NCBI GenBank assembly: GCA_002376005.1
Contig: DFNJ01000022.1
Span: 42,434-106,433 of the forward strand
Reading direction: 5' to 3'
From: Firmicutes bacterium UBA3570
GTDB taxonomy: Bacteria; Bacillota; Sulfobacillia; UBA3561
Length of the DNA stretch: 64,000 bases
Position 1 is the stretch's first letter; each line of letters starts with the position of its first letter. Below, one piece after another: positions 24,673 to 41,493 of the stretch. The notes below the pieces were generated by a model, which did no database searches, was not told where the DNA came from, and saw nothing but the letters and a program-made list of their open reading frames with translations. Both the position numbers and the translations under genes were made by a program.

Positions 24673-24694
24673 GCTCCCCGCTCCCTTCCACCGG

Positions 24695-26350: not shown

Positions 26351-26389
26351 CCATTTCCCCCTCCTTTGGTGGGCATGATGTACGCGCAG

Positions 26390-27035: not shown

Positions 27036-27053
27036 CGACTGACTGGTCAGTCG
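27036..27053. promoter_or_regulatory. Perfect 18-bp palindrome CGACTGAC-TG-GTCAGTCG, candidate TetR operator
   Basis: Read from sequence; 8-bp arms, 2-nt centre, lies 17 nt upstream of the TetR ATG and overlaps the HAD stop codon; loop too short for a terminator hairpin. Confidence 0.45.
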
Positions 27054-27904
27054 CCCACTCCTAGCACCTGCAGTATCTCCAGTACCCCTTCCGCGCAACA
27101 GTTCCTGGCCACCATATCAGCGTGAGGATGCAGCTCCGCCGGTGCGTTTCCCACCAGGGCCCCCACGCCAGCCACCTCCAGCATCTCCATGTCATAATGC
27201 CCATCTCCGATGGCCAGGACCTGCTCAGGCGTCAGCTCCATTAGCTCCGCCAGCTGACGCAACGCCCATCCCTTGCTCGCCTGGTGGTGCTGGATGTCCA
27301 CGTAATGGGGCATGGAACTGGTGACCCGTAGTTCCCGCGGCAGCCGACCCTGCAGGTGCGCCCGCAGGGCCGGTGCCTCCTGAGGATCGACCAGGAGGAG
27401 GATGCGAGTGGGTGCGCGCCCTTCGTCAACGAGGCGTCGCACCAACCCCGGATCGGGCGGAATCGGCTGTTGCAGTATCCCTTCGTAGCGGCGCCGGTGC
27501 TCGCTGTCCCGGTTGGTATAAACCTCGTCACCGAAGAACGCGTAAATCTGATGTCCCAGGCCGGCGATGGCACACATCACCTGGCCCAGCGCCGCCCGCG
27601 GGATGCACAAATGCCGGTACCTCTTGCCGCTCAGCGGGCATCCGATCACTGCTCCACCATCGGTGATAATGGGGTGCCGGATCCCCAGCCTGAGAGCCCA
27701 GCTCCGGGCGGAGGCGAAGATCCTCCCGGTGGCGATGCTGAAGGCACGACCCGTGGCCAGCGTACGTCGCACCGCCTCTTGTGCCACCGAAAGGTCAGAC
27801 TCAGCGCAAATCAGGGTGCCGTCCAGGTCGGTTACCACCAGCCGAAGACGAGCAGCGTCCATCACTCGCTGGGGAATAGGGTGACCCTTGCCCTTCATCC
27901 CCAT
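27047..27904 (-). CDS. Cof-type HAD-IIB family hydrolase
   Basis: VVTDLDGTL motif I, ...GDGHYDMEMLEVAGVGALVGNA motif III; start trimmed to MGMKGKGH (27904). Confidence 0.75.
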   Translation of the reverse strand: MGMKGKGHPIPQRVMDAARLRLVVTDLDGTLICAESDLSVAQEAVRRTLATGRAFSIATGRIFASARSWALRLGIRHPIITDGGAVIGCPLSGKRYRHLCIPRAALGQVMCAIAGLGHQIYAFFGDEVYTNRDSEHRRRYEGILQQPIPPDPGLVRRLVDEGRAPTRILLLVDPQEAPALRAHLQGRLPRELRVTSSMPHYVDIQHHQASKGWALRQLAELMELTPEQVLAIGDGHYDMEMLEVAGVGALVGNAPAELHPHADMVARNCCAEGVLEILQVLGVGD

Positions 27905-28280
27905 GGCTCCCCCATCTTCTTCCCCTCCCCGGCAATGATCCCCCTGGGTCAACGGGCCCGGCGCGGGGGCAAGGCACCACCTGCGCACCGCCTCACGGAA
28001 AGTAACGCCGCGCGGCGGCTGCTGCTTGCCACGGCCACTCCAAACGCCCCGCCCGTGTGAACCGGTGATCACCCCTACCCCGGCATCCACCCCGTTCCTC
28101 GCCCGCCGCCCCACGGTATTCAGCCTGACTACCGTTCGGGTGGGGTGAATCCAGCTGCCGAATCTCCGTCTCCACCAGGAGGGGAACCGCTGCTACGAGA
28201 TACCGCCACCACACAATGGGGATGGGCCCGTCCCCGCCGCCGTGCCGCTTCCAAATTTCATTATATCAGCACCCCGCTCA

Positions 28281-28628
28281 TCAGCTCGGCCTGGGTCCAC
28301 CACGCCATCTGCGCCATGCGACGATCCCCAGCAAGAGCGCCATCACCGGGCTGAGGATGATCCGTTGGTACTGGTGGTATGTCCATTCCAGGCCCAGCAA
28401 CGCGCCGCTGGCGCAGACCCACAGCACCACATTCTCCACCAGCCACCGCTGTCGGGGGCGTCCGCGGAATCGCTGTCGGGTCCAGATGGTGAGCGGCCAG
28501 GCCGCCAGCCCGAGCGACACCCAACCCGTCCACTGAGCCACGCCATCGGGATGGGCATCGAGGGCGAACATCACTATGGAGACGACCCCCCAGGCGGTGG
28601 CCGCGTCTCTCCAGTTCCTGACGGACAT
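28281..28628 (-). CDS. Hypothetical small membrane protein (115 aa, ~3 TM, Trp-rich)
   Basis: ORF between HAD and M14 genes with three hydrophobic segments; no homology recognised. Confidence 0.3.
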   Translation of the reverse strand: MSVRNWRDAATAWGVVSIVMFALDAHPDGVAQWTGWVSLGLAAWPLTIWTRQRFRGRPRQRWLVENVVLWVCASGALLGLEWTYHQYQRIILSPVMALLLGIVAWRRWRGGPRPS

Positions 28629-28666
28629 TCTTCACCGCCGCCTTCGTCCTCCAGTTCGGGAGCAGG

Positions 28667-30370
28667 TCATGGTTGCGAATCGCACTGCCCCAGCCGGCCC
28701 TCCCACCGCGCTACGCCCGCCCGGTCGCCGCGCGCCGTCACCCGGACCGGTGCGCCCGCCGTGCCCTTGATGGCCCACTGGAGTCGTTTCTCCCGCGCCG
28801 GCAGCCCTCCGCCGTACGGCCCCCGGGTGGCCTTGTACCTCCCGTCCAGGTGCTCCAGGTCCTCGCTCTGCCGCCCGTAAACCAGCTGGGCCCCCTCCGG
28901 CAGCTCCAGCTCCACCCGCAGCGGCCGCAGGAACCCAGTGGTCTTGGCCTGCTCGGAGCCGGACGTGGGCAGGTACCCCCGATTGCGGAGGGTGATGGAA
29001 AGCTTGTACACGTCCTCACCCAGCCGTTCCCAGCGAGGGTTGACCAGCACCAGTTCGGGGAGGGCACGACAATGGGCCAGCGTGAACATGGCGTTCTTGC
29101 GGCACTCGGCCTCCAGGTAGGAAGTGGGCGGATTGATGAGGAAAAACTTGCTGTCCCAGCCGCCGATCTCCACCTCACCCAGCTGGGGATGCTTGAAGGG
29201 GCGCCAGGGCACGAATCCCCTTCCCGCCAGCTCTCTGTCGTTCCAGGCCAGGAGTTTCAGCTGTTCTTCCTCGCTCCACTGCCGTCGGCGCGTGAAATCC
29301 GGTGGGATGCCCGCCCGCTGCGCGGCGTCCCACAGCTCGGTGGAAAAGGTAATGATGCCCAGATGCTCGTACAGCCAGTCCATGAACACCCCCAGCAATG
29401 GTTTCCTTTTGTCAACCAGGAACCGTTCATACACCGAGATGCAGGGGTAACCCACCAGCTTTTCGCCTCGCCGTCCCAGGGCCTGGTAGATGGCAAGGTC
29501 CCCCGGGGGCATCTCGGCATCGCCTTTGGTGCAGTAGGGGCGCAGGATGGCCCCGGCGGTGGTATGGTAGGACATGGCCCCCGCCACGTTGCGGTGGGTG
29601 CTCAGGAACTCGGCGATGCTGCGCGTCTCCGGTTCGGAAAGTGGGTACGGACCGGCACCCGGCTGTCTGGATTCCACATCCCAGTGAGCGGGGTAGTTCC
29701 GGTTGATGTCCAGGCCCCAAGGAGACCGCGCCAGCCGGATCTCGCCGCCGTCCCAGTCATGAAGCATCCCTTCTGGCAGCAGGCGGTAGTACTGCCCACC
29801 CTCCTCGTCCGGCTCCCGGGGAATCATCAGGCGCGGATCGCGGCTAGATACTTTCCATTCTCCGTCTGGATCGGGCACCCGCATCTGCAGGATCCGGCCG
29901 TCCCCATCGATGTCCTCCCGCACCAGGCCCTTCGGTTCCTCCTTCCAGGGATAGGGCCGGGTGCTGGACCTGAGCAGGTGCGGCGTGGTGAGAAATAGCT
30001 CCGCACCGTCCGCGGACACCCGTGGCAGGATGTAGAAGGTCCTCCTCCTGAGCAGGTCCACGATCTCGTGGTTCCCCTGCTCGTGCTGGGTGATGAGATA
30101 GTCAATGGTCCAGAGACATACCGCGGAACCCGTTACCTCCCCTGCGTGATGATTGCCGTCGATGTACAAAGCTGGTTTGTCCTCCGGGGAGCCCGTCTGC
30201 ATGTCGGTGACACACATCAACCACAGGTCCCTTCCCTCGAAGGTCTTCCCTATCGATTCGAGGCGGCACAACCCGGGAAACTGCTCGGCCCACTTCTTGA
30301 GAAGATGGGTCATTTCATCGTAAAGGTAGTACCTGTCGGGCTGATAGCCCGTGACAGTGGTCGTGGCCAT
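28667..30370 (-). CDS. M14-family zinc carboxypeptidase (567 aa)
   Basis: HxxE zinc motif in YIDGNHHAGEV, downstream NRN and catalytic-region conservation typical of M14. Confidence 0.78.
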   Translation of the reverse strand: MATTTVTGYQPDRYYLYDEMTHLLKKWAEQFPGLCRLESIGKTFEGRDLWLMCVTDMQTGSPEDKPALYIDGNHHAGEVTGSAVCLWTIDYLITQHEQGNHEIVDLLRRRTFYILPRVSADGAELFLTTPHLLRSSTRPYPWKEEPKGLVREDIDGDGRILQMRVPDPDGEWKVSSRDPRLMIPREPDEEGGQYYRLLPEGMLHDWDGGEIRLARSPWGLDINRNYPAHWDVESRQPGAGPYPLSEPETRSIAEFLSTHRNVAGAMSYHTTAGAILRPYCTKGDAEMPPGDLAIYQALGRRGEKLVGYPCISVYERFLVDKRKPLLGVFMDWLYEHLGIITFSTELWDAAQRAGIPPDFTRRRQWSEEEQLKLLAWNDRELAGRGFVPWRPFKHPQLGEVEIGGWDSKFFLINPPTSYLEAECRKNAMFTLAHCRALPELVLVNPRWERLGEDVYKLSITLRNRGYLPTSGSEQAKTTGFLRPLRVELELPEGAQLVYGRQSEDLEHLDGRYKATRGPYGGGLPAREKRLQWAIKGTAGAPVRVTARGDRAGVARWEGRLGQCDSQP

Positions 30371-30385
30371 CCGTCGCCTCTCCTT

Positions 30386-31159
30386 TCAGGACAAGATCAC
30401 CGCGAAGTCCCCGAAATCCCCCCCTGTCCCGGTGGCTTCCAACTGCTGGGCCGCCCTCTCAACCCTCTCCAGGATGTGCGAGGAGAGGGGAGCGGTACCT
30501 CGACCGGGGAGCAGCAGGGTCGTCTCACCGCGCACCGATGCCAACCGTCGCCAGCTGGACGCCAGCGCCCTCATCCCTCCCGCCTCTTCCCCGCACCTGA
30601 CGCATCCCAGGTGAAAAGTATCGCCGGTGAAAAGCCATCCCTCCCGGGCTTCCCAGAGGGAGAGGGAACCAGCCGTGTGCCCCGGGGTCTCCCATACTGC
30701 CAGACGCCTGTCCCCAAGGTCCAGCACCTGTCCCTCGGCGATCTCGTGGATGTCCAGAGCCGGCAGCTGGCGCCACCAGCGGTCGGGGTCGAATCCCTGC
30801 GGTAGGGCCCTGGTCAGAGAATCCCCGCCCAGCAGCCGGCGAGGATCCTCCGGCATCACTTCCGCCAGGCGTTCTCGCTCCCGCCGATCTACGTACAGCC
30901 TCAGCCCGGGCCAAAGACCCCCCAGGCGATCCCAGTGGACGTGCGTGGCCACCGCCACCACCGGCAGGCGCACCAGCGATCGCACCACTTCTGCCAGAGG
31001 GCCGATCCCCGTACCGGCATCCACCAGCAGTGCCCTCGAACTGCCGGCCACCAGATAGGACACCGGGCATCCCCGGTAGCCCGGCTCGGCCAGCATCCAC
31101 AGGCCACTGGCCAGCCTTACCACCTGGTACCAGCCTTCCAGCGGGTTCCCCTCCCTCAA
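30386..31159 (-). CDS. MBL-fold metallo-hydrolase
   Basis: HxHxDH motif THVHWDRLGG plus downstream TPGHTAGS and D/H ligands. Confidence 0.75.
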   Translation of the reverse strand: MREGNPLEGWYQVVRLASGLWMLAEPGYRGCPVSYLVAGSSRALLVDAGTGIGPLAEVVRSLVRLPVVAVATHVHWDRLGGLWPGLRLYVDRRERERLAEVMPEDPRRLLGGDSLTRALPQGFDPDRWWRQLPALDIHEIAEGQVLDLGDRRLAVWETPGHTAGSLSLWEAREGWLFTGDTFHLGCVRCGEEAGGMRALASSWRRLASVRGETTLLLPGRGTAPLSSHILERVERAAQQLEATGTGGDFGDFAVILS

Positions 31160-31962
31160 TCCGACGGGATCTTCTTCCAGAGCTCCACCAGCTTGATGAG
31201 CTTTTCCACGCCTTTGGCCATTTCCTCTTTCAGCTTCTCGGGATCGGCTTCATTGGGATCGGCGAACCCCCACACGCCGGAGCTGGTGAGTAGGTGACTG
31301 TCGGGAATGTAAGCGCTCAACAGCTGGGCGGCGAGGACGGCCTCCTCTCCCCGGGCTTTCCGCAGCTCCTCCAGAGGAGCCCTCAGCCGGGTGGTGGACT
31401 GGAATCCCTTCACCCGCTCCATTTCCACCAGCTCGGGGAAGAAGGCGAGGGCGAAGCTGGTCTCCCGGGGACCAGAGTGCACATCCATGCGTTCCAGGAA
31501 TGCTTCTGCCTGCTTCTGGGGATCCTGGAGGCCGCGAGTATCGGGAACGATGACCACCGATCCAAACCGCCTGCGGGCCAGACGGGCCACATAGGCCACG
31601 ATCTGGGCATTGCCCCCGTGGGCATTGATCAACAGGATCTTCTTGATCCCGTGGTGCGCCAGGCTCTCTATGGTATCGAGCAGCACTGCCACCAGTGTCT
31701 CCGCCTTCAGGGTGATGGTGCCCTTGAACCCCATGTGATGCGGGCTGAAGCCCGGCCAGCACGGCTGCACCACCAGGCACCCCGTGGCTTCCGCCACCTG
31801 TCGCGCCACGGCCAGAGCACCGTAGCTGTCGGTCCCCAAAGGGAGATGGGGGCCGTGTTGTTCGATGGATCCCAGGGCGATTATCACCACGGGATCCGGG
31901 TTCTCCCTCAGGTACTCTTCGAACGCCGGCCTGGTGAGATCGTGCAGCATTACCTTTTTCAC
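31156..31962 (-). CDS. Creatininase-family amidohydrolase (paralog B)
   Basis: LGSIEQHGPHLPLGTD...SPHHMGFKGTITL...INAHGGN; ~35% identical by eye to paralog A. Confidence 0.75.
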   Translation of the reverse strand: MKKVMLHDLTRPAFEEYLRENPDPVVIIALGSIEQHGPHLPLGTDSYGALAVARQVAEATGCLVVQPCWPGFSPHHMGFKGTITLKAETLVAVLLDTIESLAHHGIKKILLINAHGGNAQIVAYVARLARRRFGSVVIVPDTRGLQDPQKQAEAFLERMDVHSGPRETSFALAFFPELVEMERVKGFQSTTRLRAPLEELRKARGEEAVLAAQLLSAYIPDSHLLTSSGVWGFADPNEADPEKLKEEMAKGVEKLIKLVELWKKIPSD

Positions 31963-33341
31963 GCTTTCGCTCCCCCTTCCTCTGAAAATGGCATCCTGCC
32001 CGTGTACTTCAACACCTCCAGGAAACCCAGCTGCTCCATGAGGTCGCGAACTTCATCCCGCGTCCGCCGCCTTCCGGGCCACTCCGGCCAGCAGGCCATG
32101 CGCAGGACCAGCCGGGCCACCAGCATGGAATCCAGGCGCAACCAGCGGGGGGACACCTTGTCCAGGGTGTCGGCGGCCGTGTGTCCCCAGTTGCGGCCAG
32201 TCCGCACTTCTTCCATCACCGCCAGGTAGCCACTGGGAACTCCCGCCAGAGAGAAGGGATACATGTCCGAATGCAACCCAAAGTTGGAGTCCACCAGCAG
32301 CGGCTCCTTCATGTCGGCGGCCACGCGCCTGAAGTATGGGATGAGCTCGATGCACCCCTGCAGGGCCAGACCCTTGTCCCCCTCTCGTCCCGCCCCGTCC
32401 AGGTTCAGCATGAACTTCAGCTGGTCCAGTTCGTCGGCATGCTGGGCCACGTAAGCATGGGACCCAAACAGACCCAGCTCCTCAGCACCGAAACACACGA
32501 ACCGGACCGTGCGTCCCAATACTTCCCTATGACGGCTGAGCAGGCGCGCCGCCTCCATGACCACCGCAGTACCAGAGGCGTCGTCCTGGGCCCCCACCGC
32601 GATATCGTGGCCGTCCACGTGTGCCCCGACCAGGATCACCTCGCCCGGACGGTCCCGGCCCTCCAGCTCTCCCACCACGTTCCAGGAAGTACGTTGCTCG
32701 ATGACGTTGTCGGTGCGAATGCGCACCCTGACCGGGCCCTGTCGCAGCAGCCGCCGGATGCGGAGGCCGTCCTCCCGGGTCACCGCCACCCCGGGGATTT
32801 CCGCTCCTGGACGCAATGCTCCCGTCTCCACCAAGTGGCCAGCCTGGTCGCGCATCCAGATGAACCCCACAGCGCCGGCAGCCACTGCCCTCCCGTACTT
32901 CTCCATACGGTGTATGCCGCGACGGAAGTAGGCGGGAGACTTGGCATCCACCAGCACTATCCTGCCGGCAATCTCTGCCGCCATGCTGTCAAACAGCGCC
33001 GGGGTCCCGTACCCCACATCCACCACTTCCGCCTCCACATCGAACGTCCCGGTGTGCGGGAGGCTGATTGCTGGCAGCTGGTGCTCCTCGGGAGCTACGA
33101 TGTCAAGCTGGCAGCTCCCCCGGGTCCAGCCTGGATACTCAAAAGGTTCCAGACGTACGTTGCTAAGCCCCCACCGGTTCATTTGCGCCACCAACAGCTC
33201 TGCCGCCTCACGCTCCCCAGGGGTCCCGGGAAACCGGCTCCCGCACGCGCAGAGTCGTTCCACCAGCTCGTAAGCGGCGTCCGACGTCCAGGCATCGGCG
33301 ATGATCTGTCGATCCACCTCTCTGAGCGATGCCATTGGCAT
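31959..33341 (-). CDS. M28-family aminopeptidase with PA domain
   Basis: 460 aa; M28 zinc ligands (HVDGHD...GAQDDASG, FVCFGAEELGLFGS, NLDGAG), PA-domain insert. Confidence 0.78.
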   Translation of the reverse strand: MPMASLREVDRQIIADAWTSDAAYELVERLCACGSRFPGTPGEREAAELLVAQMNRWGLSNVRLEPFEYPGWTRGSCQLDIVAPEEHQLPAISLPHTGTFDVEAEVVDVGYGTPALFDSMAAEIAGRIVLVDAKSPAYFRRGIHRMEKYGRAVAAGAVGFIWMRDQAGHLVETGALRPGAEIPGVAVTREDGLRIRRLLRQGPVRVRIRTDNVIEQRTSWNVVGELEGRDRPGEVILVGAHVDGHDIAVGAQDDASGTAVVMEAARLLSRHREVLGRTVRFVCFGAEELGLFGSHAYVAQHADELDQLKFMLNLDGAGREGDKGLALQGCIELIPYFRRVAADMKEPLLVDSNFGLHSDMYPFSLAGVPSGYLAVMEEVRTGRNWGHTAADTLDKVSPRWLRLDSMLVARLVLRMACWPEWPGRRRTRDEVRDLMEQLGFLEVLKYTGRMPFSEEGGAKA

Positions 33342-33352
33342 TCCCCCTTCCT

Positions 33353-33868
33353 TCAGAATTCCACGCCCGGCTGGGCCGCGACACCTTCCCGGTAATGATG
33401 GCGACGCTCAACCACTTCGCTCACCAGATCGGCCCGTTCCAGCAATTCCGCCGGCGCATACCTCCCGGTCAGCACCACATGCACCTCGGGGGGACGCAGG
33501 GTGAGCAGCTCCAGCACTTCGGACAACGCCACCACCCCGTAATCCACGGCCACGTTGATCTCGTCCAGGATCAGCATGTCGCAGGCGCCCTCGCGGAGCG
33601 CCTCCTCCGCCAGCATGAGCCCTCGGCGCGCATGCTGGATGTCCTCCTCATCGGGCTCGCCTCGCTTGACGAAGGAATCGCGACCGCATTGCACAATCCG
33701 GAAGTCCACCAATCCACACTTCCGCAGCGCCAGAATTTCCCCATAGACATTGCCGGGGCCCTTCATGAACTGGATCATGAGCACCTTCATGCCGTGACCG
33801 GCCGCCCGCAATCCCTGCCCGACGGCGGCAGTGGTCTTCCCTTTGCCGTCTCCCGTGAACACCATCAC
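33353..33868 (-). CDS. cobO: Cob(I)yrinic acid a,c-diamide adenosyltransferase (CobA/CobO/BtuR family)
   Basis: 171 aa; P-loop FTGDGKGKTTAA and the conserved LILDEINVAVDYG...VVLTGR core. Confidence 0.78.
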   Translation of the reverse strand: MMVFTGDGKGKTTAAVGQGLRAAGHGMKVLMIQFMKGPGNVYGEILALRKCGLVDFRIVQCGRDSFVKRGEPDEEDIQHARRGLMLAEEALREGACDMLILDEINVAVDYGVVALSEVLELLTLRPPEVHVVLTGRYAPAELLERADLVSEVVERRHHYREGVAAQPGVEF

Positions 33869-33938
33869 CAGTCCGCGCCTGGTCAGTTCGCTTCACCTCC
33901 CACCCTCACCAAAGAGGACCGCCCCTGGCCCCCTTCCT

Positions 33939-35543
33939 TCAGGGTCGCCCCTGCCGGCTGTCCAGCACCTCCCCAGGTCGCGCGCCAGTAGGCTGCCCGT
34001 CGAAGACCACGGCAGTACCGTTGACGAAGACATGGATGATGCCGGTGGGGAACTGATGAGGTTCGGTATAGGTGGCGAGATCAGCCACCCGCGCGGGGTC
34101 GAACACCACCACGTCCGCGCAATCTCCCCGGCGCAGTCTGCCCCGTCCCCGCAAGCCCAATCGACGGGCGGTGCCCCAGGTCATCTTGTGGATGGCCTCC
34201 TCCCAGCTGAGCAGACCCTCCTCTCTCACGTACCGCGCAAGGACGCGGGGGAAAGTACCGTAGGCGCGCGGGTGGGGCTTGCTGCCCTCCGCCTGGTCGG
34301 GGTCAACTGCTGACGCGTCCGAGCCGATCACCGACAGGGGATGAGCTATCACGCGGCGGACGTCTTCCTCATCCATCATGAACAGCACCACCCCCACCGC
34401 GCCCCTTTCTTCCAGCAGCAGATCGAAGATGGCGTCGCGGGGATCAACTCCCTTGCGGGCCGCCCACTCGGCCACCGTCATACCCACTGCTTGGCGGTTG
34501 GCGGGGGATCTGGTACGGGTTATGAGGACATTGTCGTACCCCGCCATCCCTCCTAGATTCTCCCAGCCCGGGATCCCCTCGGCCATCTGCCGCTTCAAGA
34601 TGACCCGCTGCTCGGGGTCCGCCAGCCTGCGCAGCATCTGCTCCATCCCTCCGGAATGGGCCCAGCTGGGCACCAGGGCACCCAGGGAGGTGCTGCCCGC
34701 GGTGTAGGGATAAACGTCGCAGAAGATTTCCCCGCCCTCCTCGCAGGCCTCTTCCATCCTTCGCAGGGTCTGTCGGGTCTTACCCCAATGGGGCTTGCCC
34801 GCCGCCTTGTGATGAGAAATGCAAACCCTGACGCCTGCCGAGCGGCCTACGGTTATGGCTTCTTCCAGCGCCTCCAGCAGGCCGTCGCCCTCGCTGCGCA
34901 GGTGGGTGACGTACACCCCCCCGTAATCCGCCAGCACCCTGGCCAGGGCCTCCAGCTCCGGGGTGCGGCTGTAGCAGCCCGGGGGGTATATGAGACCGGT
35001 GGACATCCCGAAGGCCCCCTGCTGCATGCCCTCTGCCAGCAGCTGCTGCATGCGAGCAAGTTCGGTATCGTTGGGGGACCGATCCTCCGGGCCCAGCACC
35101 GCCAGACGCAGGTTGCCGTGCCCGACGAGACAGGCCAGGTTGGCCGCCACCCCCTGTCGCTTGACCGCGCGCCGGAATCCTTCCAAGTCTTCCCAATCCA
35201 GATCCACCTTCCATTCCTTCACGCGCCGTTCCGCCTGCGCTCGCGCCGCTCCCACCAGCGGTGCTGCCGAGATGCCGCACTGCCCAATCACCTCGGTGGT
35301 GACGCCCTGGCGGACCTTGCTGGGCAAGTCCGGGCACACCAGCGCCGCCAGGTCGGAGTGCGAGTGGGCATCGATGAAGCCGGGAGCTACCGCCAGGCCA
35401 TCCGCCTCCACCCGCAAGCGCGCCGGCCCGTCCTCATCCCCTACGTGAGCGATGTACCGGTCGGCGATGGCCACGTTGGCCCGTCGGCCCGGGCGCAGGG
35501 TGCCGTCGTACACCATGCCTCCTGCGATCAGTACGTCCCACAT
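33939..35543 (-). CDS. N-acyl-D-amino-acid deacylase (D-aminoacylase) family amidohydrolase
   Basis: ~534 aa; GFIDAHSHSD metal-binding start of TIM-barrel amidohydrolase, D-aminoacylase-like insert and C-terminus; start trimmed to MWDVLIAGG. Confidence 0.8.
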   Translation of the reverse strand: MWDVLIAGGMVYDGTLRPGRRANVAIADRYIAHVGDEDGPARLRVEADGLAVAPGFIDAHSHSDLAALVCPDLPSKVRQGVTTEVIGQCGISAAPLVGAARAQAERRVKEWKVDLDWEDLEGFRRAVKRQGVAANLACLVGHGNLRLAVLGPEDRSPNDTELARMQQLLAEGMQQGAFGMSTGLIYPPGCYSRTPELEALARVLADYGGVYVTHLRSEGDGLLEALEEAITVGRSAGVRVCISHHKAAGKPHWGKTRQTLRRMEEACEEGGEIFCDVYPYTAGSTSLGALVPSWAHSGGMEQMLRRLADPEQRVILKRQMAEGIPGWENLGGMAGYDNVLITRTRSPANRQAVGMTVAEWAARKGVDPRDAIFDLLLEERGAVGVVLFMMDEEDVRRVIAHPLSVIGSDASAVDPDQAEGSKPHPRAYGTFPRVLARYVREEGLLSWEEAIHKMTWGTARRLGLRGRGRLRRGDCADVVVFDPARVADLATYTEPHQFPTGIIHVFVNGTAVVFDGQPTGARPGEVLDSRQGRP

Positions 35544-35568
35544 GTCAGTTCCCCTTTCCATGCCAACC

Positions 35569-36552
35569 TTATAGCTGGGGCGCTCCGTCTTCTTCCAGCA
35601 ACCCCAGTCTCCGTCCCAGGAATGAGGCCAGCGGGCCCATCACCGCCAGGGCCAGGGCCAGCATCACCAGCTGGGTCAGCAGGTGGTGGACCCAGGGATT
35701 CAGCCTGGTGGCTCCCAGCAGCTGGGGAAACAAATAACGGTTGTTCATGTTATGCGACACATGCACCAGCGTCACCGGCAGCAAGTATGGGAGGCGGCGA
35801 TAGATGACGCCGAAGCTCACTCCCGCCACCGCTGCGAAGAGCACGTAGCCGGCCATCAGGCTCCAGCGTGGAGGGAACAGGTGATAGTTGATGTGATACA
35901 GCCCAAACAGCAGGGCCTGGGCTACCATCCCCCAGCTGCCCCCGTATCCCTCGCTCAATACCCGTAACGCGTACCCCCGGAAACATACCTCCTCCGCGAA
36001 GTTAGAATATCCGTACGCCAGCAGTTGCTTGGGGAAGGCCTCCAGGGGAGAGGATGTGACCAGCTTCACTCCGTACACGCTACCGAAGCAGGCCGTGGGC
36101 ACCAGCTGGGCGACAAACCGGCATGCGGCGTAGCACAACACCAGCACCAGCCCCGCGCAGAGCTGCGCCTTCAGGTGCCGACCACGAAGTCCGAACTCGG
36201 CAGGGGCTGTCCTTTCCAGCACCAGCAGGGCGCACAAAGCCGCCGCTGCCATGGGGACCTTCTCCGCATTCAACCCCAGCCAGTAGTTCCCCGCCAGACG
36301 CACCGCCATGGAAAGGCCAAACACCAGCAACACCCGGGCCGCGGCGGGCATGGCCAGCCAGCGGGCATCTGCCGGCAGGTCCTGCCGCGACAGGTGCTTC
36401 AGGTAGCAGCCAGCTGCCACGACCGTCGCCGCATTGGCCACCGCCATGAAGCCACTACCCGTCCCCTGCAGGGCCAGCAGCATCCACAACAGGGACACCG
36501 CCGCCGTCGTGGAGAATGTCACCAGCAGGAGCCCCAACGAATTCTCCCCCAA
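35569..36552 (-). CDS. CPBP-family intramembrane glutamic metalloprotease (CAAX protease / Abi family)
   Basis: Multi-TM protein with CPBP motifs EEVCFRGY, FGLYH, HVSHN. Confidence 0.75.
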   Translation of the reverse strand: MGENSLGLLLVTFSTTAAVSLLWMLLALQGTGSGFMAVANAATVVAAGCYLKHLSRQDLPADARWLAMPAAARVLLVFGLSMAVRLAGNYWLGLNAEKVPMAAAALCALLVLERTAPAEFGLRGRHLKAQLCAGLVLVLCYAACRFVAQLVPTACFGSVYGVKLVTSSPLEAFPKQLLAYGYSNFAEEVCFRGYALRVLSEGYGGSWGMVAQALLFGLYHINYHLFPPRWSLMAGYVLFAAVAGVSFGVIYRRLPYLLPVTLVHVSHNMNNRYLFPQLLGATRLNPWVHHLLTQLVMLALALAVMGPLASFLGRRLGLLEEDGAPQL

Positions 36553-36616
36553 AAAGCTATGAGGCCCGAACTGCCGACTCCTTCTGCAGCCCGGCCCTCT
36601 TTCCCTTCAGTCCAGC

Positions 36617-37492
36617 TCAATCCCGCAGCCTGGGATCCAGGGCATCCCGCAGGCCATCCCCCAGCATGTTGAAGCTGAGCACGGTGACCAGTATGGCCAG
36701 GCCGGGGAACACCGACAGCCACCAGGCTTCCCGGATGTAAGCCTGGCCCTCGTACAGCATGTTACCCCAGCTGGGGGTGGGTGGCTGTACTCCCAGCCCC
36801 AGGTAGCTGAGGGTGGATTCCACCAGGATGGCGGCGGCCACGCCCAGGGTGGCCGCTACGATGATGGGGCCCATGGCATTGGGCAGGATGTGCCGGAATA
36901 TGATGCGGTTGTCCCCGGCGCCCAGGGCGCGCGCGGCCTCGGTGAAGTCCTGCTCCCGCAAACTCAGGAACTGTCCCCTGACCAACCGCGCTACTCCTGG
37001 CCAGGAGGTCAGCCCGATCACCAGCATGATGTTGTATATGCTGGGGCTGATCAGGGAAACCACGGTGATGATCAGGAACAGGACCGGGATGGATATCACC
37101 ATGTCCACCATTCGCATCAGCACGTTATCGATCAGGCCGCCGTAATACCCGGCGATGGCACCCACCATAGTCCCGATGGTGATGGATATCCCCACCGACA
37201 CGAATCCCACGCTGAGGGAGATCCGGGATCCGTATATCATCCTGGACAGTACGTCGCGTCCATATATATCCGTGCCCAGCGGGTGCTGGCGACTGGGGGG
37301 CTCCATTCGATTTCTCAGGTTGATGACGGTGGGATCGTACGGGGCCAGCTGAGGCGCGAATATGGCTACCGCGTAGAGGACCAACATCAGCACCGCACCG
37401 GCCATTGCCAAACGATTTCGGCGGAAGCGGGCAAAGGCGATGGCCCAGAACGACTGACTGCGCTGTTCCCTTCCCGGTTTCAGTTGCCGCAT
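36617..37492 (-). CDS. Peptide/nickel ABC transporter permease (DppC/OppC-like)
   Basis: 291 aa, 6 TM, EAA-type loop (AARALGAGDNRIIFRHILPN). Confidence 0.85.
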   Translation of the reverse strand: MRQLKPGREQRSQSFWAIAFARFRRNRLAMAGAVLMLVLYAVAIFAPQLAPYDPTVINLRNRMEPPSRQHPLGTDIYGRDVLSRMIYGSRISLSVGFVSVGISITIGTMVGAIAGYYGGLIDNVLMRMVDMVISIPVLFLIITVVSLISPSIYNIMLVIGLTSWPGVARLVRGQFLSLREQDFTEAARALGAGDNRIIFRHILPNAMGPIIVAATLGVAAAILVESTLSYLGLGVQPPTPSWGNMLYEGQAYIREAWWLSVFPGLAILVTVLSFNMLGDGLRDALDPRLRD

Positions 37493-37509
37493 CCTCTCAG
37501 TACCTCCAC

Positions 37510-38460
37510 TCAGTCGTACCTTATCCGTGGGTCAACGAATCCGTAGGCCAGGTCGGCGAGCAAGTTCCCCAGCACCACCATACTGGCGGCGATGACCAGT
37601 ACGCCCATGGTCACCGGGTAGTCGCGGGTGAAGGCCGCCTGCACCGCCAACCTCCCCATGCCTGGCCAGGCGAAGACGTTCTCCACCACCACCGCGCCCC
37701 CGAAGAGGCCGGGCAAGGAGAGCCCCAGGATGGTGATCACGGGAATCAAGGCGTTGCGCAGCGCGTGCTTGTATATGACCACCCGTTCGTGCAACCCCTT
37801 GGCGCGGGCGGTACGGATGTAATCCTGGCGGACCACTTCCAGCATGCTGGAGCGGGTGTACCTGGTCAGTCCCGCCAGCTGTCGGAGGCCAAGGGCAAGC
37901 ATGGGCAGGATCAGATGCCGGAGCTGGTCAACCAGGGAAAAGGGCGCACCATACGTGCGCATGCCATGTGATGGCAGCCACCGCAACCAGACGCAAAACA
38001 CCAGAATGAGCATGAGGGCGAACCAGAAGCTGGGCATGGACACCCAGATGAAAGCGAAAACGGTGGACAGATAATCGAGAATGGAATACTGCTTGGTAGC
38101 ACAGATGATCCCCAGTGGGACGGCGATGATCAGCGCGAACAACAGCGCGCATCCGGTCAGCTTCAGGGTGTTCGGCAGCCTGTTGGCGATCTTCCGGAAT
38201 ACCTCCTCGCCGTCCAGAAAAGACCGGCCCATGTCACCCCGCAGCATGCTGGTGAGCCACCGCCAATACTGGACGTACACCGGTTTGTCCAGGCCCAACG
38301 CGGTCCTGATCCGCGCCACGTCCTCCGCCGAGGCCTCGGGATTGATGAGTATCTGAGCCGGGTCCCCAGGCGCCGCCTGGATGATCAGGAAGGACAGCAG
38401 AGTTATGCCCAGGAGCAAGGGTATGGCCTGAAGAGTTCGGCGTATGGCATATTGTTGCAT
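37510..38460 (-). CDS. Peptide/nickel ABC transporter permease (DppB/OppB-like)
   Basis: 316 aa, 6 TM, conserved N-terminal ILRRLLQAIPxLLGITLLSFLI and EAA loop (RTARAKGLHERVVIYKHALRNA). Confidence 0.85.
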   Translation of the reverse strand: MQQYAIRRTLQAIPLLLGITLLSFLIIQAAPGDPAQILINPEASAEDVARIRTALGLDKPVYVQYWRWLTSMLRGDMGRSFLDGEEVFRKIANRLPNTLKLTGCALLFALIIAVPLGIICATKQYSILDYLSTVFAFIWVSMPSFWFALMLILVFCVWLRWLPSHGMRTYGAPFSLVDQLRHLILPMLALGLRQLAGLTRYTRSSMLEVVRQDYIRTARAKGLHERVVIYKHALRNALIPVITILGLSLPGLFGGAVVVENVFAWPGMGRLAVQAAFTRDYPVTMGVLVIAASMVVLGNLLADLAYGFVDPRIRYD

Positions 38461-38542
38461 CCTCCTTCACCTCCACACAATCAGGGGAAGGCCGGTACCC
38501 TGGCTAACCCGGGCACCGGCCTATCCCCGATGGTCACCTAGA

Positions 38543-40321
38543 TCATTGGGTCGGCTTCACTGGCCCACCCTGCAGGTCCTTGGGGATCCACCACTTCTCT
38601 ATATTCCACCGGATTCCCGCAGGAGTGGCGGTGATGGGTCCCTTGACTCGGACGTTGACGGCGGTCAGGGCGTTCGGGAAGTACAGGAACAGATACGGCT
38701 GCTCTTCGGCCAGGATCTTCTGGAACTCGGCGTAGATCTCCTTGCGCTGTTCCTGATCCATGACCTTGCGTCCCTGCTCCAGCAAGTAGTCCACGCGCTC
38801 GTTCTGGTAGGAGATGAAGTTGAACGGCCCGCCCTCAGAGTGCCATATGCTGAAGGCGTCCGGATCCACACCCAGAGCCCAGCCAACGATGACTGCCTCG
38901 AAGTTCTTCGCCAGTAGCACCTTGTTGACGAAGGTGTTCCACTCCACCAGCTCCACTTCTACCTCGATGCCCACTTCCTTCAGCTGCTGCTGGATGATGA
39001 CTGCCGCCTGCTCGCGGATCTTGTTGCCCTGGTTGGTCTGCAGCAAGAACTTGAACTTCACGCCGTCCTTGTCCAGGATGCCGTCGTTGTCGGTGTCTTT
39101 CCAGCCAGCCTCGGCCAGCAGCTGCTTGGCCTTCTCCGGATCGTACTCGAACTTGGGTACGTCGGGGTTGTAATCCCACCGGGCCGGCGATCCGTGCGAC
39201 CAGGCGGGAATGCCGTGTCCCTGGAACAGCTCCGCCACGATGGTTTCCTTGTCGATGGCGTGGGCGATGGCCTGGCGCACCCTGACATCCTGGAACAGCG
39301 GATTGGTGAGGTTATAACCCATGTAGGTGTAGCTGAAGGTGGGTCCTTCGAAGATCTGCAGGTGCTTCATCTGGCTGAACCGCTCGAAAGCCTCGGGGGT
39401 GATGCCTCCCATGTCGATTTCTCCGGTCTCAAGTGCAGCCATCACCGTGTTCTGGTCGGGGATGATCTTGACCACGATCTCGTCCAGATAGGGTCGGCCT
39501 TCATAGTACTCGTCGTTGGCTACCACCGAGATGTACTCGCCGGTCTTCCACTCCTTGAACTTGAACCTGCCGGTGCCGATGGGCTTACGGGTGAAGTCGT
39601 GGTCCTTCATGGTGGCACCCATGTGGTCCTTGAGGATGTGCTCGGGGATGATTCCCATGGCCATCGACTGAACCAGGAAAGGCGCGTATGGTTCGGAGAG
39701 GGTGAACTGGATGGTGTGATCGTCGATGATCTTGATGGCACCACCGGCCTTGAATTCCTCGAAGGCCTCCATGATGGCCTGCTTGTACTCTTCTTCAGTT
39801 ATTTTCTTGTCCTTATAATCGCTGCGGATTTGGCTGAGCTTTTCCTGATACTCATCAAACCCCAGCAGGCTGGAATAGTTGCGCAGGCGGACGCCGGTGT
39901 ATTCCGGATGCAGGATACTCAGGAAGGTGAAGGCCACATCGCGGGCGGTGAAGGGCTGTCCATCGTGCCATTTAACCCCTTCCCGCAAGTGGAATACCCA
40001 CACCTTACCGTCTTCGGAGACCTCCCAGCTGGTGGCCAGCTTGGGAACCACGTTGATCTTGTCGTCGAAATCGACCAGGCTGCTGTGCACGTAGTCGGAG
40101 ATCAACCCCGATGCGGTGTCGTTGACGTGAATCGGATTGAAGGTGGTGGCATCTCCGATGCTGGCATCAAACAAGATGCCGCCGGTTACCGGCCCCTCAG
40201 GTTTCTCCTCCTCGGGCGGGGGAGCCTCGGCTTCCTCCCGCGGCGCACAGCCCGCCGCGACCAGACTCACGGCCAGAAGCATCACCAGCAGGAGATGTAG
40301 ACCCCTCAGTCGACTGCTCAT
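38543..40321 (-). CDS. ABC transporter substrate-binding lipoprotein, family 5 (peptide/nickel)
   Basis: Lipoprotein signal peptide with lipobox LVAAGC; SBP_bac_5 architecture; start trimmed to MSSRLRG (track ORF over-extended by 23 codons). Confidence 0.82.
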   Translation of the reverse strand: MSSRLRGLHLLLVMLLAVSLVAAGCAPREEAEAPPPEEEKPEGPVTGGILFDASIGDATTFNPIHVNDTASGLISDYVHSSLVDFDDKINVVPKLATSWEVSEDGKVWVFHLREGVKWHDGQPFTARDVAFTFLSILHPEYTGVRLRNYSSLLGFDEYQEKLSQIRSDYKDKKITEEEYKQAIMEAFEEFKAGGAIKIIDDHTIQFTLSEPYAPFLVQSMAMGIIPEHILKDHMGATMKDHDFTRKPIGTGRFKFKEWKTGEYISVVANDEYYEGRPYLDEIVVKIIPDQNTVMAALETGEIDMGGITPEAFERFSQMKHLQIFEGPTFSYTYMGYNLTNPLFQDVRVRQAIAHAIDKETIVAELFQGHGIPAWSHGSPARWDYNPDVPKFEYDPEKAKQLLAEAGWKDTDNDGILDKDGVKFKFLLQTNQGNKIREQAAVIIQQQLKEVGIEVEVELVEWNTFVNKVLLAKNFEAVIVGWALGVDPDAFSIWHSEGGPFNFISYQNERVDYLLEQGRKVMDQEQRKEIYAEFQKILAEEQPYLFLYFPNALTAVNVRVKGPITATPAGIRWNIEKWWIPKDLQGGPVKPTQ

Positions 40322-40501
40322 CCGCGCTCTTACCCCCTCTTCTGGTAACCACGTCACTGCCGGCCGCCCGCGGCGATCATCGGGCAGCATCCGTCACTGT
40401 TGCCTTGCAACCCCCCTTTCCGCAGCCGACATTTCGCCATCCGCGGCGCGAAACCCTCCCGAAGGGGATGGATTCTTCCCCGCGGGGGAGGGAGGATTCG
40501 C

Positions 40502-41161: not shown

Positions 41162-41493
41162 CCTATCTGGCTTACCTGGGGTTACTGATTTCCGGCTTCG
41201 CGGCTGCCGGCGCCCTCCAGCAGCTGCTAAATCGGCGGGGTCGGCGACCGGGAAGGCGCCTGTCGCCGCCCAGCGAGGCCTTCCTGTCCTTGTTGCTTCC
41301 GGGGCTGGGAGCCCTGCTCAACGGGCGCCTCGCCCGGGGCTCCTTTCTTCTCGGCGGCCTGTTAGGAGTACTGTTCTTCATCCCCTTGCCCCCGCAGATG
41401 GTGGGCGTGCCCCTGCGCTTGCTGGTGGGACCATTCTGGTTGCTGTCGTGTATAGATGCCCTGGGGGAACTCCGCAGGCAACGTGGCACGTAG
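41158..41493 (+). CDS. Hypothetical small membrane protein (111 aa, Gly/Leu-rich TM helices)
   Basis: GTGA overlap with upstream gene; two to three hydrophobic helices (LLLPGLGALLNG..., LLGGLLGVLFFIPL). Confidence 0.4.
   Translation: MTYLAYLGLLISGFAAAGALQQLLNRRGRRPGRRLSPPSEAFLSLLLPGLGALLNGRLARGSFLLGGLLGVLFFIPLPPQMVGVPLRLLVGPFWLLSCIDALGELRRQRGT

Follow-up and report, generated by a model that had tools for sequence, protein, structure and literature searches.

Probable lineage-specific patchwork of peptide-scavenging genes, with an embedded cobO, in an uncultured spore-forming Bacillota

Results

Gene content of the array

We analysed a 64-kb window (the whole stretch of DNA under study) and compared its gene calls with those of an identical public contig (L001). 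The array at 27047-40321 holds 12 ORFs, all on the minus strand in the ORF list, in agreement with the eleven or twelve genes of the initial annotation. Pfam profile searches upheld every family name given there, and the hydrolases, earlier counted as eight, number seven. The genes and features are as follows.

40322..40537, no strand: divergent intergenic region, 216 nt; upstream array boundary and presumed promoter region of the binding-protein (SBP) gene
38543..40321, minus: AppA-like oligopeptide substrate-binding lipoprotein (SBP), 592 aa; Pfam SBP_bac_5, E 9e-112
38480..38531, minus: very stable hairpin with no U-tract, in the 82-nt gap 3' of the SBP gene
37510..38460, minus: ABC permease, DppB/AppB type, 316 aa; Pfam BPD_transp_1, E 7e-47, plus BPD_transp_1_N
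36617..37492, minus: ABC permease, DppC/AppC type, 291 aa; Pfam BPD_transp_1, E 3e-35, plus OppC_N
36550..36599, minus: terminator-like GC-rich hairpin, then AUAGCUUUUUGG, between the second permease and CPBP genes
35569..36537, minus: CPBP (Rce1-like) intramembrane glutamic protease, 322 aa; Pfam Rce1-like, E 1.6e-13
33939..35543, minus: N-acyl-D-amino-acid deacylase (D-aminoacylase) family amidohydrolase (DAA), 534 aa; Pfam Amidohydro_3
33353..33865, minus: CobA/CobO-type ATP:corrinoid adenosyltransferase, 170 aa; Pfam CobA_CobO_BtuR, E 1.2e-59, whole profile
31959..33341, minus: M28 aminopeptidase with PA domain, 458-460 aa; Pfam M28, E 2e-37, plus PA
31156..31962, minus: creatininase-family metal amidohydrolase of an uncharacterised subfamily, 268 aa; Pfam Creatininase, E 6e-59
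30386..31159, minus: metallo-beta-lactamase-fold (MBL) hydrolase, 257 aa; Pfam Lactamase_B, E 4e-15
28667..30370, minus: M14 zinc carboxypeptidase of carboxypeptidase-T type with a ~200-aa C-terminal extension, 567 aa; Pfam E 4e-45
28281..28628, minus: small membrane protein, 97-115 aa, with about four hydrophobic segments in translation; no family match
28260..28268, minus: perfect extended -10 element TGATATAAT, at the head of a 376-nt gap
27047..27904, minus: Cof-type HAD-IIB phosphatase, 283-285 aa; Pfam Hydrolase_3, E 8e-41

Strand context and internal boundaries

Of the genes in the window, about 88% are on the minus strand. The unbroken minus-strand run extends beyond the array to ~14511 through ten more unrelated genes, among them those for TetR, urocanase, a sigma-54 activator, M20, UPF0182, a second creatininase paralog, an Asp/Asn-type tRNA synthetase, RodZ and a ParA-like ATPase, with gaps (-4 to 39 nt) equal to or tighter than those of the array. 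Given this bias and the continuing tight run, a tight co-directional array is no more than chance would give. On the other side of the array, plus-strand genes diverge from the SBP gene (40538-41161, 41158-41493 and an L,D-transpeptidase gene at 41506-42144 in the L001 calls), and no clear promoter consensus was found in the 216 nt between.

Spacing is tight from the CPBP gene to the M14 gene (-4 to 73 nt). All gaps had been put at -4 to 82 nt, but the largest, 376 nt, falls inside the claimed operon, 5' of the HAD gene (376-382 nt from the small ORF to the HAD start), and the supposed ATGA overlaps are in fact 4-nt overlaps of GTGA (31959-31962) and TTGA (31156-31159). The hairpin 3' of the SBP gene (MFE -43.9 kcal/mol, z -4.4; 0/200 shuffles as stable) is probably a stabiliser or attenuator within an operon. 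The hairpin after the second permease gene (-32.4 kcal/mol, z -3.0; 1/200 shuffles as stable) was missed by a generic terminator scan because its U-run begins 5 nt past the stem. Perfect TGNTATAAT sites occur three times in the window, all on the coding strand, versus 0.12 expected (0/100 shuffles reach three), and the one at 28260..28268 probably serves as a promoter of its own for the HAD gene and those that follow. The small ORF preceding it has a GC3 of 0.82, and its one match, to YwiC, is sub-threshold (E 0.006). In the longest HAD ORF the domain starts at residue 91-93; ATG starts lie at 27904 and at 27898, the latter preceded by a GGGGGAG ribosome-binding site, and the public call is 283 aa. 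As matches to sequence patterns, these signals point to two or more boundaries within the array; the HAD gene probably forms a transcription unit of its own, and the array as a whole probably spans several.

An App-like importer with no ATPase gene in the window

The best solved relative of the binding protein is B. subtilis AppA (1XOC, E 3e-118), and its N-terminus (...LVAAGC) is lipobox-like; its NCBIfam Opp4A score of 374 bits lies under the 650-bit cutoff. As the sequence is AppA-like, the ligands are probably oligopeptides. The reported absence of transporter ATPases was borne out across the window, where no ORF of the 64 kb has Walker A and LSGGQ together. Energisation by ATPases encoded elsewhere is plausible, since the nearest named relative, a predicted peptide fermenter, carries four Opp-type transporters (PMC10215811).

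Conceivably, the importer is instead a decaying or non-functional appABC remnant without appDF and without a role in uptake, with the hydrolases serving internal protein turnover. The B. subtilis app operon begins with appD and appF; here that position is occupied by the divergent promoter region and unrelated plus-strand genes. The lack of an ABC ATPase gene in the 64 kb and the absence of the importer from all related loci also fit decay. However, none of the three ORFs is truncated and their Pfam domains are complete, their GC3 (0.80-0.82) and codon-position GC pattern are as in neighbouring genes, they have strong ribosome-binding sites and a typical hairpin 3' of the SBP gene, and a close relative has several Opp-type systems able to lend ATPases. 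We consider a remnant improbable.

Hydrolases of the array

The best solved relative of DAA is the D-aminoacylase 1M7J (E ~5e-96 to 9e-96), followed by 3GIP (E 7e-94), and its catalytic residues are intact, with the HxH, Cys, His, HHK and Asp motifs all aligning. Its insertion domain has ~60 extra residues, and residues 288-353 are unmatched in the alignment to solved relatives; this domain determines substrate (PMC12017989). The M28 enzyme has 3IIB, 2EK8 and B. subtilis YwaD as solved relatives, with no evident signal peptide. The creatininase-family gene starts with the GTGA that overlaps the M28 stop codon, and its product scores under all NCBIfam equivalog cutoffs (creatininase 95.8/235, MftE 102.6/172, IolN 112.5/245). 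The MBL hydrolase carries a variant HxHxDR motif that reads THVHWDR; its TTGA overlap needs a TTG start that no clear ribosome-binding site precedes, the alternative being the GTG at 31123 with GGAAGG.

The M14 protein belongs to a widespread ~560-aa family in which the HAGE zinc motif and 80 further columns are invariant across 30 homologues. It resembles carboxypeptidase T, an enzyme of broad specificity (E 5e-21), rather than the gamma-D-Glu amidase MpaA, to which it gave no NCBIfam match. As it has no evident signal peptide, it is probably cytoplasmic, and none is evident in any soluble hydrolase whose N-terminus was read. The earlier idea that imported peptides are degraded in the cytoplasm is thus reasonable, given also the AppA-like SBP, the intact DAA active site and the distant DAA and M14 homologues that sometimes adjoin peptide ABC permease genes.

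The CPBP protein has the EEVCFR, FGLYH and HVSHN motifs. CPBP proteins are often tied to immunity, and the array could accordingly be read as a resistance or immunity module in which a bacteriocin-immunity CPBP protease is combined with an importer and hydrolases that take up and destroy a peptide antibiotic. The intact catalytic motifs agree with this, as do the MBL and D-aminoacylase folds, which are able to inactivate antibiotics. Yet bacteriocin, lanthipeptide and NRPS genes were not seen in the window, PADLOC gave no match, and the CPBP gene joins other array genes in no relative; L093 has PrsW, a membrane protease of another family, upstream of DAA with a PQQ-repeat gene between. An immunity function is therefore very improbable.

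Comparison with related loci

Neighbourhoods were compared across ~170 related loci, of which ~12 relatives, all at <=67% protein identity, were informative. The whole gene order was repeated in none, and the importer, CPBP and MBL genes were co-localised with the rest in no relative; sub-blocks did recur. The DAA-CobO-creatininase-M28 block is present in two relatives (L092, L093), and the 4-nt start/stop overlap of the creatininase-family and M28 genes is kept in both orders, M28-Creat in the window and Creat-M28 in L093. CobO-M14 recurs in six (L009, L012-L016): an ftsK-family gene is divergent from CobO-M14 in L009 and L013-L016, with a second M14 gene in four of the five, and L012 reads CobO-M14-M14 on a contig with only 1.7 kb upstream of CobO. 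No neighbour family is found at more than 8 of 80 M14 loci, and the CobO, creatininase-family, M28 and M14 genes are absent from 80/80 metagenome DAA loci. One archaeal DAA locus contains DAP-epimerase-family and S58 genes.

The segment lies in a conserved backbone that reads ...dpaAB-dapA-rnj-clpP-like-bacA-ftsK, then the variable segment, then UPF0182-(Asp/Asn-type tRNA synthetase)-rodZ...cinA-recA. L093 reads dapA-rnj-clpP-bacA-ftsK-(LDT)-PrsW-PQQ-DAA-CobO-Creat-M28-lactate permease-x-HAD...urocanase, and L175 reads ftsK-PQQ-DAA-UPF0182-(tRNA synthetase)-rodZ, with UPF0182 directly after DAA.

These maps, the kind of test named in the initial annotation, give a divided answer on the earlier proposal of a single dedicated 12-gene operon for taking up and breaking down one particular unusual peptide (for example a cell-wall or spore-cortex stem peptide, a D-amino-acid peptide or a peptide antibiotic). 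The tight CPBP-to-M14 spacing and the intact D-aminoacylase active site are in its favour. So are an M14 homologue locus (L010) adjoining S66 LD-carboxypeptidase, M55 D-aminopeptidase, MR_MLE epimerase and MlrC genes, the archaeal DAA locus, the L,D-transpeptidase gene and bacA just upstream, and a spore-forming host (dpaA, spoIID). However, the cluster itself has no S66, NlpC/P60, M55 or epimerase genes, the L,D-transpeptidase gene and bacA belong to the backbone and occur in L093 and L175 too, and L175 has DAA alone. The binding protein is closest to a general oligopeptide binder and the M14 protein to a broad-specificity enzyme without an MpaA match. With no recurrence of the whole order, and with a terminator-like hairpin and a probable promoter inside, we regard a dedicated operon as unlikely.

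Position and descent of cobO

CobO carries the P-loop GDGKGKTT. The public call (152 aa) is without the P-loop, and the start of the intact gene is at 33865/33868, reading MVFTGDGKGKTT; the protein scores 165.2 against NCBIfam cobA (cutoff 167.75). Across related genomes cobO stays near ftsK and the flanking metallohydrolases vary. CobO identity to the relatives is 45-59% where FtsK identity is 59-67%, values consistent with vertical descent. The initial annotation saw no obvious rationale for cobO here, a puzzle now partly resolved, as the position near such hydrolases is kept in the lineage. cobO is probably a vertically inherited housekeeping corrinoid adenosyltransferase gene, fixed near ftsK while hydrolase genes turn over.

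Discussion

The host is an uncultured, high-GC, spore-forming Bacillota whose nearest named relative is Ca. Fermentithermobacillus (class-level group DTU015); its spore-former markers include dpaA and spoIID. We favour, at a probability of roughly 0.55, the reading that the array, rather than being one conserved 12-gene operon, is a patchwork of peptide-scavenging genes specific to this lineage and located in a variable stretch of the chromosome. The segment would comprise three or more evolutionary modules: an App-like importer of oligopeptides (binding protein and two permeases) with borrowed ATPases, followed by the CPBP gene; a DAA-CobO-(M28/creatininase-family) block common to two relatives; and an MBL-M14 pair, the cobO...M14 linkage being common to six. 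The lipoprotein would bind oligopeptides and the permeases import them, after which M28 may trim N-termini and M14 C-termini. The D-aminoacylase homologue may cleave N-acyl-D-amino acids or L-Xaa-D-Xaa remnants, and the creatininase-family and MBL enzymes may remove other amide or ester groups. The most likely function is general oligopeptide uptake and breakdown, possibly of D-amino-acid peptides too, in a peptide-fermenting scavenger.

One point counts against a patchwork: cobO lies tightly between hydrolase genes in ten genomes and the creatininase/M28 overlap is kept, which could point to real functional coupling rather than to synteny kept passively. Accretion and differential loss from a larger ancestral cluster would explain the maps equally well. 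As a whole the array is an ordinary finding, and the recurrent cobO-hydrolase linkage is the minor point of remaining interest.

Peptide and amino-acid fermentation can use AdoCbl-dependent mutases, and the linkage might be functional, with AdoCbl supply co-regulated with such fermentation or with the amidohydrolases processing corrinoid amides after adenosylation. Indeed, cobO is co-directional beside DAA and Creat-M28 or M28-Creat (window, L092, L093) and beside M14 in six genomes, with gaps down to 9-22 nt; in L003 it lies beside a different creatininase paralog, with no ftsK-family gene in the 20.8 kb of that locus covered. Against this, L175 retains DAA without cobO, no B12-dependent enzyme, btu gene or further cob gene was seen in the window, no cobalamin riboswitch or other Rfam match was present in the window and eight related loci, and no paper in the literature library searched names a corrinoid adenosyltransferase and a creatininase together. 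Except for L003, all cases belong to one clade whose members share large-scale gene order around ftsK; inheritance therefore suffices to explain them, and we judge a functional link improbable. Compared with Salmonella CobA, the array CobO is a short form that lacks the N-terminal ~30 residues and aligns from CobA residue 27/32 to the C-terminus; the corrinoid-amide version of a functional link would resemble the archaeal CobA -> CbiZ route of cobinamide salvage.

Gene content of the array

An ORF scan of the window found twelve minus-strand ORFs between 27047 and 40321, which the initial annotation had read as one operon for the import and degradation of an unusual peptide. That description was partly confirmed and its interpretation partly supported. 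A Pfam search of each protein confirmed every family that it had named; the hydrolases, counted there as eight, number seven.

Genes of the array, with their Pfam matches
38543-40321, minus strand: SBP, AppA-like binding protein; SBP_bac_5, E 9e-112
minus strand: two BPD_transp_1 permeases, with OppC_N and BPD_transp_1_N domains
minus strand: CPBP, Rce1-like/CPBP protease, E 1.6e-13
33939-35543, minus strand: DAA, D-aminoacylase-family amidohydrolase; Amidohydro_3
33353-33868, minus strand: cobO; CobA_CobO_BtuR, profile positions 6-172 of 172, E 1e-59
minus strand: M28 with PA domain
31156-31962, minus strand: Creat, creatininase-family protein; Creatininase, E 6e-59
30386-31159, minus strand: MBL; Lactamase_B
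minus strand: M14, E 4e-45
28281-28628, minus strand: small ORF with about four hydrophobic segments
start at 27904/27898, minus strand: Cof-type HAD, E 8e-41

The HAD start was placed at 27904/27898 because the HAD domain begins only at residue 91 of the longest ORF (Pfam). The gaps of -4 to 82 nt described initially hold from SBP to the small ORF; they do not hold from there to HAD, where the gap of 376-382 nt is the largest in the run. The 4-nt overlaps, first given as ATGA, read GTGA and TTGA.

Strand bias and transcription units

The minus strand carries about 88% of the genes in the window (~65% G+C). By gene content the window is a classic Firmicute backbone, nearly all of it on the minus strand: infB...pnp...spoIID, dpaA/dpaB, aspartokinase, dapA, RNase J, ClpP-like, bacA, ftsK...rimO/miaB-like, cinA, recA, recX. 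The minus-strand run that begins with SBP passes beyond HAD through ten unrelated genes with gaps of -4 to 39 nt, including those for TetR, urocanase, a sigma-54 activator, M20, UPF0182, a second creatininase paralog, an Asp/Asn-type tRNA synthetase, RodZ and a ParA-like ATPase. Because the same packing continues past HAD in a window that is 88% minus-strand, the shared direction and tight spacing of the array are genome background. All array genes are co-directional, and such co-direction and spacing do not discriminate an operon here; the arrangement is not more than expected by chance. We caution that in strongly strand-biased Bacillota a long, tight same-strand run of plausible enzymes is no evidence for a pathway. 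Among the few plus-strand units of the window are a DEAD-box helicase gene with an MrfA Zn-binding domain (10208-12466) and, overlapping it by 4 nt, a gene for an RNase_H_2-fold protein with TPR repeats (12463-13593), a pair that resembles the mrfAB mitomycin-repair pair of B. subtilis.

The upstream boundary of the array is real: three plus-strand genes lie between ftsK and SBP and diverge from SBP across a 216-nt spacer. One encodes an L,D-transpeptidase (LDT); the two ORFs upstream of it (207 and 111 aa) had no family match. The LDT gene (41506-42144, plus strand; YkuD and PG-binding domain) converges on ftsK (42073-44229, minus strand), where the 3' ends of the two ORFs share about 70 nt, and the same convergence is seen in the related locus L093.

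Several signals lie within the array. A very stable hairpin (-43.9 kcal/mol, z -4.4) follows the SBP gene, a position at which stable hairpins are common in ABC importer operons. A GC-rich hairpin with CUUUUUG behind it (36550-36599; z -3.0) separates the second permease gene from CPBP and resembles a terminator or attenuator. The head of the gap that follows the small ORF (376 nt) carries a perfect extended -10 element, TGATATAAT (28260-28268, minus strand). Perfect TGNTATAAT sites number three in the window, where 0.12 would be expected, and each lies on the coding strand.

Perfect TGNTATAAT sites in the window
6898-6906, minus strand: within the intergenic gap 6858-6936
28260-28268, minus strand: after the small ORF
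47805-47813, minus strand: inside the longest RNase J ORF, upstream of the first Pfam-matched residue

The first and third sites both lie at gene 5' regions and, since the third precedes the Pfam match within the longest RNase J ORF, rnj probably starts further downstream. From these matches, the organism may rely on extended -10 promoters. For the array, these signals suggest that HAD and the genes that follow have a promoter of their own, and HAD is probably a separate unit. The initial view of a single operon across 27047-40321 is thus at odds with an internal terminator-like hairpin and an extended -10 motif, both of which are pattern matches. Neither the whole window (gathering thresholds) nor the 376-nt gap (E up to 1) nor any of eight related loci gave an Rfam match to a riboswitch or leader, and the window has no tRNA genes. 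A generic promoter and terminator scan gave counts at chance level, and the sigma-54 consensus matched 36 times versus 33 expected, with no match usefully placed.

Gene order in related loci

One metagenome contig (ENA ERZ529318) is an exact match to the window. Elsewhere, the nearest proteins share only 50-60% identity and belong to uncultured Bacillota, among them Ca. Fermentithermobacillus, a predicted spore-forming fermenter of peptides and amino acids in the class-level group DTU015 that carries four Opp-type transporters (PMC10215811). The window has genes for DpaA_N, flavoprotein-type DpaB (dipicolinate synthase subunits) and SpoIID (48939-51719 and 53803-55341, minus strand), which indicate that the source organism is endospore-forming.

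About 170 loci around Creat, M14 and DAA homologues were each searched for all window proteins. The full array order was present in none of them, and in none did the importer, CPBP and MBL genes lie beside the other array genes. Of the order on which the initial annotation had built, only two parts recur: DAA-CobO-Creat-M28 at 2 loci and CobO-M14 at 6.

Related loci with parts of the array (PrsW, a membrane protease family unlike CPBP; PQQ, a PQQ-repeat gene)
L093: dapA-rnj-clpP-bacA-ftsK-(LDT), then PrsW-PQQ-DAA-CobO-Creat-M28-lactate permease-x-HAD...urocanase
L092: DAA-CobO-Creat-M28-lactate permease
L175: ftsK-PQQ-DAA, directly followed by UPF0182, tRNA synthetase, rodZ
L009, L013-L016: ftsK-family gene divergent from CobO-M14; second M14 in 4/5
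L012: CobO-M14-M14, short contig
L003: PadR-CobO-(different creatininase paralog)-CoA transferase

L093 shares the window backbone dapA-rnj-clpP-bacA-ftsK-(LDT), and the whole stretch from cobO to M20 is missing in L175. In L003 the orthologues of Creat and M14 lie 7 and 16 kb beyond the CobO block. Around Creat, the gene neighbourhoods of L003, L005, L007 and L176 show no conservation with that of the window. A DAA profile scan found CobO, Creat, M28 or M14 near DAA in 0/80 metagenome loci, and peptide ABC genes nearby in 5/80. The segment between ftsK and UPF0182-(tRNA synthetase)-rodZ is variable, with content that differs in every genome examined.

Downstream of the array, the urocanase gene is tightly packed with genes for the TetR regulator, the PrpR_N-type sigma-54 activator and the M20 peptidase (21464-27019, minus strand); other hut genes were not seen in the window. 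L093 also has a urocanase downstream of its equivalent block. The second creatininase paralog (17934-18731, minus strand) is about 30% identical to Creat and overlaps by 4 nt the stop codon of the UPF0182 gene (18728-21457, minus strand), which encodes a 909-aa membrane protein. In L175 the tRNA synthetase gene directly follows UPF0182, without this paralog.

cobO keeps its position

The intact cobO encodes 170 aa (33353-33868, minus strand; start 33865/33868) with the P-loop GDGKGKTT, which some public calls (152 aa, start 33811) cut off. The protein narrowly missed the cutoffs of TIGR00708 (165.2, cutoff 167.75) and NF004637 (176.6, cutoff 185). In ten genomes cobO is tightly wedged among hydrolase genes: beside DAA and Creat-M28 or M28-Creat in three, M14 in six and a second, different creatininase paralog in one. 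In most of these an ftsK-family gene is near. CobO identity (45-59%) is in line with FtsK identity (59-67%). Thus, cobO keeps its position while the surrounding hydrolases change. A peptidase operon probably did not recruit cobO; peptidase genes more likely accumulated around it or underwent differential loss there. The lack of an obvious rationale for cobO, remarked on initially, is a puzzle that its kept position and the changing hydrolases largely remove.

The placement could instead reflect a true, undescribed functional coupling, either as corrinoid salvage or remodelling, in which amidohydrolases would act on adenosylated corrinoids by analogy with CobA then CbiZ, or as an AdoCbl supply obligatorily co-expressed with peptide and D-amino-acid fermentation. 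The tight placement among hydrolase genes in ten genomes speaks for it, including L003, where the 20.8 kb retrieved around cobO contain no ftsK-family gene, as does the 4-nt overlap of Creat and M28, which is kept in both gene orders (window and L093). However, the window and eight related loci contain no cobalamin riboswitch, no B12-dependent gene was seen in the window, and L175 has DAA but no cobO. We consider coupling improbable, even with both versions taken together. A literature search found no paper naming both a corrinoid adenosyltransferase and a creatininase. If functional, the linkage would offer a first hint of what the uncharacterised ~560-aa M14 family and this creatininase subfamily do. 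That cobO stays with changing metallohydrolase sets across a deep, uncultured DTU015-like clade is a small point for specialists.

Hydrolases and importer

DAA matched the D-aminoacylases 1M7J and 3GIP at E about 1e-95. Its motifs GFIDAHSHSD, GQCGIS, THLR, SHHK and GSDAS align to both and are invariant or nearly so across 30 homologues, and the metal and catalytic residues of subtype-V amidohydrolases (HxH, Cys, His, His, Asp) are all conserved where aligned. The insertion domain is the region that recognises substrate in OngB, which belongs to a sister clade of DAA and acts on a sugar acid (PMC12017989). Assignment of the DAA substrate through Arg295 of Bb3285 failed, as this position falls inside the unalignable insertion.

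Compared with solved structures, M28 is similar to 2EK8 and YwaD, aminopeptidases with a PA domain. Creat missed the equivalog level of TIGR04448, the model for creatininase proper (95.8, cutoff 235), and was also under the cutoffs of the MftE and IolN NCBIfam models; by these sequence matches, its creatininase membership holds at the Pfam family level only. Three relatives carry, upstream of the Creat orthologue and divergent from it, a gene for an S9 peptidase of ~740 aa whose N-terminal domains are Tricorn-like:

L003 7578-9827: S9/Tricorn-like peptidase, directly adjoining the Creat orthologue
L005 6958-9174: S9/Tricorn-like peptidase, with a flavodoxin-like gene between it and the Creat orthologue
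L176 2720-4942: S9/Tricorn-like peptidase, directly adjoining the Creat orthologue

This arrangement is a second, independent link of a creatininase-family protein to a peptidase. CPBP keeps its motifs EExxxR, FxxxH and HxxxN (EEVCFR, FGLYH, HVSHN). MBL reads HxHxDR (THVHWDR) where the canonical motif is HxHxDH, a variant that suggests an altered second metal site.

Among solved structures, the M14 protein comes closest to carboxypeptidase T (E 5e-21); carboxypeptidases A and B are also among its best matches there. Its ~560-aa family occurs in Bacillota, often as two to four tandem paralogs, and in Chloroflexota, cyanobacteria (Microcystis, Tolypothrix), Rubrobacter and Deinococcus (loci L009-L011, L012-L018, L021, L023, L031, L037 and L047). 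We found no characterised member of the family. Neighbour clustering gave no conserved M14 neighbour across phyla, the commonest neighbour family occurring in 8 of ~80 loci. The candidate identity as an MpaA murein tripeptide amidase was rejected because there is no NCBIfam match and the best solved relatives are carboxypeptidases T/A/B; 'MpaA' on homologues is JGI's own naming only.

SBP has a lipoprotein-type N-terminal signal. Its closest solved relative is B. subtilis AppA (1XOC, E 3e-118), and it matches MppA weakly (E about 1e-26). Of the PepT-family (Opp/App/Dpp) features, a family-5 SBP and two BPD_transp_1 permeases are present and OppD/OppF-type ATPases are missing. Walker A and LSGGQ occur together in none of the ORFs from all frames of the 64 kb, and Pfam scans found no ABC_tran domain, so the absence of transporter ATPase genes noted initially extends over the whole window. 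A PepT-family importer encoded without ATPases is a small point of possible specialist interest. The first and second codon positions account for the lower GC of the SBP gene (0.58). Its GC3 (0.80) is like that of its neighbours and so gives no support for horizontal acquisition of the importer.

A patchwork of known families

Taken together, known families make up the array, an ordinary assembly specific to this lineage. The window combines three modules: an App-like importer without ATPases plus CPBP, DAA-CobO-(M28/Creat), and an MBL-M14 pair. The lipoprotein SBP probably binds oligopeptides, which the permeases would import with ATPases encoded elsewhere; M28 and M14 may trim peptide ends, the DAA homologue may handle N-acyl-D or L-Xaa-D-Xaa remnants, and the creatininase-family and MBL enzymes may cleave other amide or ester bonds. 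The idea of one 12-gene operon for an unusual peptide was not upheld: its whole order occurs in none of the ~170 loci, and the SBP and M14 proteins look like generalists by sequence. A cell-wall or D-peptide emphasis of the array is possible. M14 paralogs lie beside S66, M55, MR_MLE and MlrC genes in L010, and an archaeal DAA locus carries DAP-epimerase-family and S58 genes; the cluster and window contain no S66 LD-carboxypeptidase, L-Ala-D/L-Glu epimerase, gamma-D-Glu endopeptidase or M55 D-aminopeptidase, the families that define murein-peptide recycling clusters of the dpp-ykf type. PADLOC gave 0 matches among ten proteins, and the array was rejected as an anti-phage defence system.

Comparison with known systems

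Like the D-aminoacylases of Alcaligenes faecalis (1M7J) and Bordetella Bb3285 (3GIP), DAA keeps the metal-binding and catalytic motifs; unlike them, it has an insertion domain ~60 residues longer that is not alignable. The window M14 shares the conserved HxxE zinc motif of carboxypeptidase T of Thermoactinomyces vulgaris (M14A) but is 567 aa long, extends by ~200 aa at the C-terminus and shows no evident signal peptide. With its start at 33865/33868, CobO can be aligned along the whole catalytic core of Salmonella enterica CobA (1G5R, 4HUT) and shares the P-loop GxGKGKTTAA; unlike CobA, it lacks the N-terminal ~30 residues, and its gene sits among hydrolase genes rather than cob genes. In Salmonella CobA the aromatic pair Phe91/Trp93 displaces the lower ligand; in this region GFTWE pairs with GRDSF, with no aromatic at those positions, in a gapped, low-confidence alignment.

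The importer resembles the B. subtilis App importer (appDFABC) in having an AppA-like SBP followed by two PepT-family permeases in A-B-C order, and differs in that appD and appF are absent and a CPBP protease gene follows the permeases. E. coli MppA-OppBCDF is an Opp-family transporter for murein-peptide uptake. Agrobacterium takes up murein peptides via another Opp-family transporter, YejBEF-YepA (PMC9790009). Both provide precedent for cell-wall peptide import, and the array shares with them an SBP_bac_5 family binding protein and two permeases; in contrast to both, no muropeptide-specific enzymes adjoin its importer.

The enzymes of B. subtilis dpp-ykf are the M55 DppA, S66 YkfA, enolase-type epimerase YkfB and NlpC/P60 YkfC. 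Those of the array are instead a D-aminoacylase homologue, M28, M14, creatininase-family and MBL proteins, and, unlike dpp (dciA)-ykfABCD, the array has no ATPases and shows no conservation as a whole. The likeness between the two is one of concept, namely a PepT-family importer next to cytoplasmic hydrolases, one of them D-amino-acid-specific.
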